DNA of 64,000 nucleotides from Methanobacteriota archaeon. GTDB lineage: Archaea > Thermoplasmatota > Thermoplasmata > SG8-5 > DAIRED01. The stretch lies in the NCBI GenBank assembly GCA_043799545.1, contig JAZDNO010000014.1, positions 22,795 through 86,794 of the forward strand. Reading direction: 5' to 3'. The position numbers and the translations under genes were made by a program. How positions within the stretch are numbered: position 1 is the stretch's first letter; the number at the start of each line of letters is the position of its first letter. Of the stretch, positions 17,020 through 19,050 are shown one piece after another. Below the pieces are notes generated by a model. It saw only the letters and a program-made list of their open reading frames with translations, searched no databases and was not told the origin of the DNA.

Positions 17020-18363
17020 TCAAAGCCTCTTCATCGCCTCGCGCGCCTGGCCCGCCCGCTGGGCGTTGCCTATGCCGTCGAAAATCATCGCCGCACTGAG
17101 GAGGTACTCGTTCGCCTGCGCTTTCTTGTCGGCCTCGGCGAGCATCAGACCGCATTCGTAGCTCGCGTCGGCCAGCCTGTAGGGCATGTTCAGCTTCTCG
17201 CGGAGCGAGATAGTCTTCTCGAAGTACGCCAGCGACTCGTCGAAGCTGCCCTTGAGCCTGTAGATTATCGCGTAGGAGAGGTAGGCGCCTGACATGCCGA
17301 GGCTGTCCCCGAGCTTTTGGAATATGGCGAGCGACCTGTCACAGTACTTGACCGCCTTCTTGAAATCCTTCAGCCGCGCATAATCCTCGCCGGCGTTGAA
17401 GAGCGCCCAGCCCTCCATAACGACGTGGCCTATCTTCGAGGCAAGCGCTATGCATTTCTCGTAGTACTCGACCGATTCTTCGTATTTTTCCTGCCTCGCG
17501 AAGTTGACGCCGATGTTGTTGTAGAGGGTTGCCATCGCCTGGTAGTCTTTGAGTTCCGTCAGCAGCGTGAGGCTCTTGTTGGCGCATTCCAGGCCGCGCT
17601 CGTACTTGCCGCGCTCGTCGTAGACGTTCGCCATCGCCATGTACACCTGCGCCGACCCCTCCTTGTAGTTGTGTTTCTCGGCAAGCCAGAGGGCCTGCTC
17701 GAGCACGCCGATGGCGCGCTGGTACTCCCCCTTGCGCCAGTAGAGGTTCCCCAGCAATCTGTTCGCGTCCACCAGGAGTGGCGGCTCGCCGATATTCTCC
17801 GCCTTTCCGACCGCATCCTTGATGAGCGGCAACGCCTCGTCGTAATTCCCAGACCGGAGGTGAATTCCGCCAAGGCCGCTCTGAAGTTTAACCGCCATGC
17901 GGAGGTCGCCGATGTGGTTGGCGATTTTCAAGGCCTTCGAATAGTTCTCCACGGCGTCCCTCCACAACCCAGCGTGCCGGCTGGCCTCGCCGAGCTCGAA
18001 GAGCGCAGACATCCTCTTCCCCGCCTCCACCTTCTCGGAGGTCTGGGACTTCATCGAATGGATTGCCGTCAGTTTTTTGTAGACGGATTTGGCCTTGTCC
18101 TGGCCGAAGAACGTCATCGCCTTCGAGAGGGCGCTCGCCAGGGCTGGCAGGTCGGCGGGTCTGAGTTCGTCCGGGTCGAGCTTGAGGTCCTTACACTGCT
18201 TCTTGACGATGAAGAACCCCATCTCCCCGAGTTCCGAGAGCATTATCTTATTGATTTCCTGGCTGGTTTCAGATGGCAAGGCGCTCCTCCGTTGCGTTTG
18301 GAGCCGATATGCGGATGGAACAGCTGCCCCCTCAAATCCCTTTCGGCGGACTCGTGGGAACAC
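17020..18363 (-). CDS. TPR-repeat protein with small N-terminal helical domain; start uncertain (ATG 18243 is an alternative)
   Basis: About seven TPR-like units (LGNLYWRKGEYQRAI, NNIGVNFARQEKYEES). Confidence 0.8.
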   Translation of the reverse strand: MFPRVRRKGFEGAAVPSAYRLQTQRRSALPSETSQEINKIMLSELGEMGFFIVKKQCKDLKLDPDELRPADLPALASALSKAMTFFGQDKAKSVYKKLTAIHSMKSQTSEKVEAGKRMSALFELGEASRHAGLWRDAVENYSKALKIANHIGDLRMAVKLQSGLGGIHLRSGNYDEALPLIKDAVGKAENIGEPPLLVDANRLLGNLYWRKGEYQRAIGVLEQALWLAEKHNYKEGSAQVYMAMANVYDERGKYERGLECANKSLTLLTELKDYQAMATLYNNIGVNFARQEKYEESVEYYEKCIALASKIGHVVMEGWALFNAGEDYARLKDFKKAVKYCDRSLAIFQKLGDSLGMSGAYLSYAIIYRLKGSFDESLAYFEKTISLREKLNMPYRLADASYECGLMLAEADKKAQANEYLLSAAMIFDGIGNAQRAGQAREAMKRL

Positions 18364-18513
18364 ATGGTCTCCATGCGTGAGCGAAAATGCGAAATTGCCA
18401 TAACTGGAATCGCATCAGGCCCGCAATGGCATCATCATTCCCGGCAAATCACCGCAACCATTATATAGTACCGTCTGCTCCTCGGTTAGCCTTAACCCGA
18501 GATGCTAGGCACT

Positions 18514-18681
18514 GGGCCCGTAGCTCAGCTAGGTAGGAGGGGCCGCACGCGACCTCTCTCTAGTAAGAGCGTCTGGCTTTTAGCCGCCGGGGACAAGCTC
18601 CCATGCGGGTAAGACACCAGAATGTCCGGGGTTCGAATGACGCTGCCTCCGGGCACCGCTCCGAAATTCCCCGCGGGCCCG
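18514..18681 (+). tRNA. tRNA-Lys(UUU) with three introns (20/21, 37/38, 59/60)
   Basis: Exons 18514-18534, 18566-18582, 18616-18637 and 18668-18681 join to a 74-nt cloverleaf: acceptor GGGCCCG/CGGGCCC, D GCTC/GAGC, anticodon stem TCTGG/CCAGA with loop CT-TTT-AA, T CGGGG/CCCCG with TTCGAAT. Introns have BHB-type junctions. Confidence 0.93.
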
Positions 18682-18792
18682 CAGCCAATGATTGCATGGG
18701 CGGCAATCGCGGAGTGGGTGACAAGATGGCAAAAAACCCAGAAAACCAACAATCAGGATTCTCAGGCAATACTGCAAAGAGGAGCTGAAAGC

Positions 18793-19050
18793 ATGGACGA
18801 CTTCAACGTGCTAGAGCACGATCTAGTTCCTTCCCACATCCTTCTCTCGGAGAAGGAGGTCGCGGAAGTGCTTCAGAAGTACGGGATAGGGAAGGACCAG
18901 CTTCCCAAGATTCGGCGCACGGACCCTTGCGTGAGGGCCATAGAGGACGCCATGAACAAGGACATCGAGGAGGGCTCGATGATAAAGATAGTGCGCAACA
19001 GCCCTGTGGCAGGAATGATTGTAAGCTACCGGGTGGTCGTCAAGGGATAG
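18793..19050 (+). CDS. rpoH: RNA polymerase subunit H (Rpo5)
   Basis: FNVLEHDLVPSHILL, QLPKIRRTDP, KIVRNSPVAG..YRVV; start set at ATG 18793. Confidence 0.96.
   Translation: MDDFNVLEHDLVPSHILLSEKEVAEVLQKYGIGKDQLPKIRRTDPCVRAIEDAMNKDIEEGSMIKIVRNSPVAGMIVSYRVVVKG

Follow-up and report, generated by a model that had tools for sequence, protein, structure and literature searches.

Can a euryarchaeal cell build a lysine tRNA from a gene that is cut into four exons, and with which splicing endonuclease would it do so? Both questions are raised by a locus in the 64,000-nucleotide stretch of Thermoplasmatota DNA analysed here (the window). In a tRNAscan-SE 2.0 census of 217 archaeal genomes, all 16 three-intron tRNA genes belonged to Thermoproteales and none was found in 144 Euryarchaeota, while three Methanomassiliicoccales genomes contributed 13 canonical and 6 non-canonical introns as well as one two-intron gene (PMC8450103, Suppl. 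Table S7). We infer that this two-intron gene is the form of the present tRNA-Lys that carries the D-loop and T-loop introns. Apart from the clade totals of that table, no description of the gene was found in the literature on Methanomassiliicoccales and Thermoplasmata tRNA introns. For relaxed introns, in turn, Kaneta et al. (2018; PMC5829648) report removal only by those enzymes of the (alpha-beta)2 and epsilon2 types that bear specificity loops, and Cluster II Euryarchaeota have been described as exclusively alpha'2 (PMC5829648).

In this work, we examine the locus, its orthologues and the splicing enzymes encoded in the same genome. The locus is a real multi-intron lysine tRNA gene, apparently an indispensable one, and it is almost certainly functional. 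Our reading, which we consider very probable, is that it specifies a working tRNA-Lys(UUU) whose three introns are cut by a single EndA and whose exons are joined by RtcB, in a layout inherited from an ancestor. The gene is usual for its clade and nothing particular to this one genome; genes of this kind were already known, and it is the lineage that is new.

Architecture of the interrupted gene

The gene occupies positions 18514-18681, and its features are collected in Table 1. Removal of the three introns leaves a 74-nt tRNA-Lys(UUU), called by ARAGORN as tRNA-Lys(ttt), with a complete cloverleaf in which the 7-bp acceptor stem, the 4-bp D stem and the 5-bp anticodon and T stems are all paired. 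The original prediction, made from the DNA letters of the window, had placed the three introns at these same positions and is confirmed by the joined product. The boundary of the D-loop intron can be written as 20/21, 21/22 or 22/23 with the product unchanged, and it is BHB geometry that picks 20/21. The same three introns were recovered de novo, at C27:41308-41475 in contig coordinates, by a whole-genome scan for BHB and cloverleaf structure, which was anchored on the T arm, the acceptor stem, U8 and A14, enumerated BHB-compatible excisions and tested the products for a cloverleaf and with ARAGORN.

Table 1. Features of the interrupted tRNA-Lys(UUU) gene and its flanks, numbered from the first letter of the window.
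Feature	Position	Strand	Description
TATA-like box TTATATA	18461..18467	+	about 47-53 nt upstream of the tRNA 5' end; read from sequence
Exon 1	18514..18534	+	21 nt; acceptor 5' strand, U8, A9, D-stem 5' strand, D-loop to U20; same in the congeneric species
Intron 1	18535..18565	+	31 nt; D-loop, 20/21; relaxed HBh' motif
Exon 2	18566..18582	+	17 nt; A21, D-stem 3' strand, G26, anticodon-stem 5' strand, C32-A37 including anticodon UUU
Intron 2	18583..18615	+	33 nt; canonical 37/38; H 3/4
Exon 3	18616..18637	+	22 nt; A38, anticodon-stem 3' strand, variable loop, T-stem 5' strand, T-loop U54-A59
Intron 3	18638..18667	+	30 nt; T-loop, 59/60; strict hBHBh'
Exon 4	18668..18681	+	14 nt; U60, T-stem 3' strand, acceptor 3' strand, discriminator G73; CCA not encoded
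rpoH (RNA polymerase subunit H)	18793..19050	+	112 nt downstream of the tRNA; first gene of the RNA polymerase operon; ATG 18793 after AGGAG

As had been anticipated, standard callers overlook the gene. ARAGORN makes no tRNA call on the unspliced 168-mer and misses the gene with or without its intron option, and the Rfam tRNA covariance model fails to find it even at E <= 10, in the window and in the whole genome alike. The space is instead filled by an open reading frame at 18622-19050 (142 aa), of which residues 61-139 match Pfam Rpb5_C (5.5e-26). This is a 5'-extended version of rpoH that overlaps exons 3 and 4, which bears out the earlier suspicion that the tRNA gene underlies spurious ORFs. 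An essential tRNA is invisible to ARAGORN and Rfam in well above 100 Thermoplasmata genomes. Since both tools miss it and an extended rpoH frame stands in its place, the tRNA complements and completeness estimates of these metagenome-assembled genomes (MAGs) are understated.

Downstream, rpoH is followed by a 1203-aa ORF from 19059 in the rpoB position. No oligo-T tract or terminator was found between the tRNA 3' end and rpoH (18682-18792); the tRNA and the RNA polymerase operon may share one transcript, or transcription of the tRNA may continue into the operon. On the upstream side, the orthologues inspected likewise carry a TATA-like box, at about -45 to -55 with similar spacing, and the TTATATA box probably acts as the promoter of the tRNA gene, as judged from its sequence and position. 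A 383-aa ORF at 17317-18468 (+), which ends at the box, has no Pfam match at E <= 0.001. As a separate observation, RNA-library contigs of close relatives from two studies start inside the tRNA gene, reach 18708/18709 and then diverge.

Splice motifs of the three introns

The introns were assessed with one geometry, namely a 4-bp helix H flanked by 3-nt bulges and cleaved after bulge nucleotide 2. By this measure, the T-loop intron is a strict hBHBh' element, in which H (UUCG:CGAA) stacks on G53:C61 and 3-nt bulges stand on both sides; its BHB and the cloverleaf frame are retained in the minimum free energy (MFE) fold of the precursor. The anticodon intron pairs C32:G, U33:A and U34:A and then meets a U35-U mismatch, which leaves three of the four pairs of H. 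Its outer helix h is the anticodon stem, its h' has 2 bp with an inner hairpin beyond, and the MFE fold favours a register shifted by one. Outside the genus, most anticodon introns have all four pairs of H, and the U-U weakening is genus-specific.

The D-loop intron has a full helix H (CUAG:CUAG), a 5' bulge made of G19-U20-A and a 7-bp h' (GGAGGGG/CCUCUCU, two of the pairs being G-U). It lacks a contiguous outer helix: the unpaired A14 and G15 face the 3' splice site. Because these two nucleotides stand between H and the D stem, the 3' cut falls within an internal loop, and the intron belongs to the HBh' class, a recognised relaxed form of the BHB. The UUCG:CGAA helix with its closing G53:C61, the CUAG:CUAG helix with its GGAGGGG/CCUCUCU stem and open exon-side loop, and the U-U mismatch had been listed in the original prediction, and each is found in the sequence. 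No two of the three motifs overlap, and splicing therefore need not follow a fixed order.

These motifs are strongly conserved. Among 112 unique orthologues of the D-loop intron, H is complete in 106, h' has at least 2 bp in all 112, and a contiguous outer helix occurs in none. The T-loop intron retains a complete H in 82 of 86 orthologues and a stacked T stem in 86/86, and the anticodon intron shows H 4/4 in 31 of 44. When introns were shuffled, a complete H together with an h' of at least 2 bp arose in just 1.5-3% of trials (1.5% for the D-loop comparison). RNAalifold returned the D-loop motif as the consensus of 34 orthologous segments, with compensatory changes on both sides at all 5 h' pairs, and the T-loop motif as the consensus of 35 segments. 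Intron position and H sequence are the same throughout.

The ends of the introns carry the palindromes CTAG and CGAA, which were considered as target-site duplications and rejected, as they are explained by pairing with the palindromic loop sequence. Moreover, the end of the T-loop intron, CGAAAA|T, does not copy TTCGAAT.

Function and constraint

The host assembly comprises 2.06 Mb in 31 contigs at 58% GC and is 94% complete. Searches with ARAGORN (introns allowed), Rfam, blastn of the exons and two de novo scans found no second tRNA-Lys(UUU) in this 94%-complete genome, so an intact copy that would make the locus a pseudogene was sought and did not turn up. The one candidate, at C10:187582-187613, proved to be a 33-nt similarity inside an AbrB-like coding gene and was discarded as a chance match. 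A tRNA-Lys(CUU) lies on contig C1. In the long ORFs of this genome, AAA accounts for 10.3 per 1000 codons.

Selection on the gene is visible in a comparison with a congeneric genome (G001/L002), against which the exons differ at 0/74 positions and the introns at 16/94; the changes in intron 1 leave the intron helix paired. It is highly improbable that the gene is a decaying pseudogene, or that its inserts are mobile hairpin cassettes, with AAA decoded by another tRNA. Such a reading could appeal to the richness of the genome in hairpin cassettes and partial tRNA copies beside tRNA genes. It could also appeal to an incomplete tRNA inventory, in which ARAGORN, Rfam and two BHB-aware scans, one of them relaxed, failed to find Ala-CGC, Arg-GCG, Arg-UCG and Ser-CGA. 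These four isoacceptors may lie in the absent ~6% of the assembly or be disrupted beyond the reach of the scan anchors. Moreover, the contigs of four metatranscriptome runs contain no spliced joints and only the unspliced sequence of relatives, in data that rarely capture a 74-nt mature tRNA; the search of sequencing runs had returned only libraries in which these organisms hold a small share. Against decay or cassettes stand the invariance of the exons while the introns drift, the recurrence of the same four exons and splice motifs in more than 100 species, the frequent AAA codons with no other tRNA-Lys(UUU) found to read them, and the unlikeness of the Lys introns to the cassettes.

Phylogenetic distribution and origin

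The 5' half interrupted in the D-loop was found, by exact sequence pattern, in at least 119 species genomes. Among the matches listed, all that are labelled are Thermoplasmata, Methanomassiliicoccales or Thermoplasmatota-type MAGs, in agreement with the Thermoplasmatota-like character first attributed to the window. Within the class, 67 of 301 sampled genomes, spread over 26 genera, carry the interrupted pattern, and other families have uninterrupted 5' halves (f9, 36/36; f20, 33/33; f12, 7/7; f16, 4/5; f21, 3/3). The 112 unique D-loop-interrupted genes comprise about 37 with D-loop, anticodon and T-loop introns (D+A+T), 48 with D-loop and T-loop introns, 9 with D-loop and anticodon introns and 16 with the D-loop intron only. 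Versions with only the T-loop intron and versions free of introns also occur.

To trace this history, we used a FastTree phylogeny of the adjacent RpoB from 110 non-redundant genomes, a single-gene, midpoint-rooted tree whose carriers were chosen by sequence pattern. The minimum numbers of state changes on it are 4 for the D-loop intron, 4 for the anticodon intron and 6 for the T-loop intron, with 95, 36 and 77 carriers, respectively. The host and its congener fall in a three-intron clade (support 95) that holds 28 three-intron genomes, and D+A+T is common to the neighbouring families. Inside this clade, one sub-clade has secondarily lost the T-loop intron, and the sister lineage has lost the anticodon intron. 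With so few changes and a well-supported D+A+T clade, the triple-intron state is ancestral here: the layout goes back to the common forebear of a large Thermoplasmata clade and is not a recent gain.

The suggestion that the three introns were acquired recently in this lineage, for example by intron transposition, is accordingly very unlikely. It draws on the strong divergence of intron sequences between families, and it is opposed by the tree, by the shared D+A+T state of host, congener and neighbouring families, and by the identity of position and H sequence throughout. Recent gain was one of the two explanations offered by the original prediction and is not upheld. Nor is the gene a singularity, since in the clade this one gene routinely has the triple-intron form, an outcome of the kind that the prediction itself had named as refuting it. 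As the relatives show every combination from 0 to 3 introns with few transitions between them, they provide a natural system for dating the gain and loss of tRNA introns outside TACK and DPANN.

Compared with the three-intron genes of Thermoproteales, the present gene shares the presence of up to three BHB-type introns, the mixture of canonical and non-canonical positions and the failure of simple callers. It differs in having a Thermoplasmata euryarchaeon as host and in being the one three-intron gene of its genome. A further difference is that Thermoproteales possess an (alpha-beta)2 EndA with a CSL, whereas the enzyme here is a fused, alpha'2-like EndA without a CSL.

The splicing endonuclease and the D-loop intron

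The EndA gene (P0001) lies outside the window, on contig C1 at ~19.5-20.6 kb (-), and encodes 364 aa (in a 364-371-aa frame) arranged N-C-N-C. All profile matches fall in this one frame (PF01974, 92 and 67 bits; PF02778, 56 and 53 bits). No other PF01974 or PF02778 match occurs in the genome, which thus has a single EndA and lacks a separate gene for a beta subunit. The Tyr-His-Lys triad (FRVY...THARY...VRK) is located in the C-terminal repeat, where it aligns to the catalytic residues of 5x89, 1a79 and 3p1z_B. In the N-terminal, presumably structural, repeat, His and Lys are kept and Leu replaces Tyr (FRVL against FRVY, compared by eye). Among PDB structures, the best match is the artificial beta-alpha fusion of the M. 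kandleri enzyme (5x89, 1.3e-40 over the full length), followed by A. fulgidus alpha'2 (3.7e-27); M. jannaschii alpha4 and A. pernix alpha are matched as well. The RtcB ligase is also encoded in the genome (601 bits).

None of the known specificity loops is present. The Lys-bearing L1/L2 (CSL) insert in the N-terminal part of the catalytic unit is absent, with gaps opposite the 10-residue insert of A. pernix 3p1z_B (the DVEKPRGADFEG region, with K44) and a gap-free alignment to M. jannaschii 1a79 at this place. The L3 insert near the C-terminus is absent too, as the catalytic unit has no insertion relative to 1a79 and is shorter at two points, by 2 residues and by 1. The lack of any insertion relative to the strict M. 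jannaschii enzyme means that L1, L2 and L3 are all missing. In addition, an Arg occupies the position of the cation-pi Trp of (alpha-beta)2 enzymes. From its sequence, we classify EndA as a fused two-repeat, alpha'2-like enzyme, which is predicted to form a homodimer. With the A. fulgidus and T. acidophilum alpha'2 enzymes (PDB 1r0v, 2gjw, 2ohc) it shares a structural N-repeat and a catalytic C-repeat, the lack of a specificity loop and the Arg at the Trp position; it differs in being ~60-75 residues longer and in having a complete N-terminal repeat. The classification of endA subunits called for in the original prediction thus gives a single fused alpha'2-like protein, which is not any known broad-specificity type. 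Of the proposed broad-specificity endonuclease, the functional part may hold, in that a relaxed D-loop motif must still be cut; a known broad-specificity architecture would not be the means, as the sole EndA has no known specificity loop. The original prediction also proposed that interruption of the D- and T-loops may shield the gene from integrating elements, an idea for which this genome offers n = 1.

Maturation of the tRNA may be envisaged as follows. A precursor of at least 168 nt would be transcribed, its cloverleaf stems would form, and each intron would offer its own local BHB-type motif. The single EndA, a putative dimer, would cut after the second nucleotide of each 3-nt bulge. The sites presented to it would be a strict BHB in the T-loop, a BHB weakened by one U-U in the anticodon loop and a relaxed HBh' in the D-loop, where the 3' cut would have to be made in an internal loop closed by the D stem alone, two nucleotides away. 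RtcB would then join the four exons, the ends would be trimmed and CCA would be added.

The T-loop site should pose little difficulty. The same 59/60 position is interrupted in pre-tRNAs of ARMAN-2 (Ca. Micrarchaeum), whose introns are cut by the epsilon2 EndA (PMC3239211) and served as an hBH mini-helix in PMC5829648. There the motif is a relaxed hBH that needs the ASL loop, whereas the intron here is a strict BHB with both 3-nt bulges and should suit any EndA type. The D-loop site is a different matter. In vitro, the alpha'2 enzyme of A. fulgidus did not clearly remove either a D-loop intron of the HBh' type at 20b/21 or a 59/60 mini-helix of the hBH type (PMC5829648). The closest precedent is the 20b/21 intron of M. 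kandleri, which is spliced in vivo with a loop-less EndA (PMC5829648). The pre-tRNA-Glu(UUC) of M. kandleri shares with the present gene the D-loop position class, the HBh' motif, an EndA without L1, L2 or L3 and an additional canonical intron (PMC5829648). The two cases differ in that the M. kandleri enzyme is a two-gene (alpha-beta)2 heterotetramer, whereas the enzyme here is a natural single-chain protein with two repeats, in that the present gene has a third, T-loop intron, and in that its D-loop intron is conserved class-wide rather than in one species.

We hold it probable, by a modest measure, that the two-repeat EndA, in its long and loop-less form, cuts the relaxed HBh' of the D-loop natively and unaided, including the 3' site in a 2x3 internal loop. 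EndA would here read the conserved H, the 3-nt 5' bulge and h', which are the features that it recognises, and M. kandleri provides a loop-less enzyme that succeeds in vivo. The other possibility, which we regard as rather unlikely, is that EndA alone does not process this intron and is helped by an accessory factor (an RNA chaperone, a tRNA-binding protein, a modification or a second nuclease), or that the intron is cut last, after the tRNA body has folded. It is favoured by the lack of a contiguous outer helix in every D-loop intron compared and of any known specificity loop in EndA, and by the poor in vitro activity on such a motif of the loop-less A. fulgidus and fused M. kandleri enzymes, for which the authors invoke cofactors or modifications (PMC5829648).

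The D-loop motif is not confined to this gene. In a genome-wide census, the non-canonical introns found are the D-loop and T-loop introns of Lys-UUU and the D-loop introns of the initiator tRNA-Met and tRNA-Arg(CCG). The initiator gene, C24:15642-15763 (-), has a 47-nt intron with H TAGG:CCTA and AAA bulges, and the Arg gene, C30:75687-75791 (-), a 31-nt intron after nt 17. Both are relaxed HBh' introns like Lys intron 1, with H 4/4, an h' of 4 and 6 bp, respectively, and no outer helix, so the cell must process this motif in any event. ARAGORN miscalls the first as Met with an odd intron and the second as Leu(gag).

Across the class, EndA occurs in a long form of 358-395 aa (with one 461-aa frame) and a short, Thermoplasma-like form of 292-321 aa. 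The long form is present in all four interrupted-Lys lineages examined (f1, f3, f17, f26). It is also found in f9, where tRNA-Lys is intron-free, and in f5 and f18/g37, where the 5' half is uninterrupted and the T-loop intron is kept. The short form (292-299 aa in other families of the class) was met only with an uninterrupted tRNA-Lys, in the two families examined (f16, f20). A role for long versus short architecture as an intron switch was therefore rejected, as there is no clean correlation (n = 10): the long form also accompanies uninterrupted tRNA-Lys, and architecture alone does not explain the introns.

The field ties multi-intron and relaxed-motif tRNA genes to EndA with a lysine loop, and in the present case the relaxed D-loop intron runs through the class while the enzyme beside it is alpha'2-like and loop-less. 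How that enzyme handles the motif is the testable point. If EndA does cleave it unaided, the requirement for an L1, L2 or L3 loop for relaxed or non-canonical introns and multi-intron tRNAs would be wrong for Cluster II Euryarchaeota, and the determinant would lie elsewhere, for example in the complete N-terminal repeat or in D-stem stacking. The series of orthologues with 0, 1, 2 and 3 introns and with long or short EndA would then allow this determinant to be mapped. With at least three tRNAs of this genome carrying a relaxed D-loop intron beside a loop-less EndA, the loop rule is open to a direct in vitro test.

Other features of the tRNA set

Canonical introns were found in the genes for Trp (103 nt), Tyr, Ser-GGA, Ser-UGA, one Met-CAU and Lys-UUU, and Lys-UUU is the sole multi-intron gene found in the genome by ARAGORN, Rfam and the BHB-aware scans. 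The scans also returned long "three-intron" calls on C22, C24, C25 and C5, which were dismissed as false positives, being implausible and duplicating the anticodons of intact genes.

A hairpin cassette whose end copies the 3' end of the tRNA itself lies 80-150 nt downstream of at least 12 intact tRNA genes, and at least 4 intact genes have a copy of their own first ~18-21 nt located 100-140 nt upstream. The breakpoints of these cassettes and partial copies fall in the T-loop and the D-loop. Examples are found at C6:45447-45756 (tRNA-Thr-CGT), on C10 (Thr-UGU, Ser-GCU and Cys), at C2:13715-13936 (Gln-CUG) and at C26:2937-3145 (Asn-GUU), and the cassettes of Thr-CGU, Thr-UGU and Asn-GUU are 86-100% alike. 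A common origin of the Lys introns with the cassettes or partial copies was considered and set aside, as blastn-short found no similarity between them.

Finally, a class-II tRNA with a 16-nt variable arm and the anticodon GAA (Phe) lies at C24:88554-88640 (+) and scores 56.7 bits with Rfam. It closely resembles tRNA-Leu(GAG) at C25:30497-30582, and a normal class-I tRNA-Phe(GAA) is present on C10. It may be a tRNA of the Leu or Ser type that reads Phe codons, or a mutated copy.
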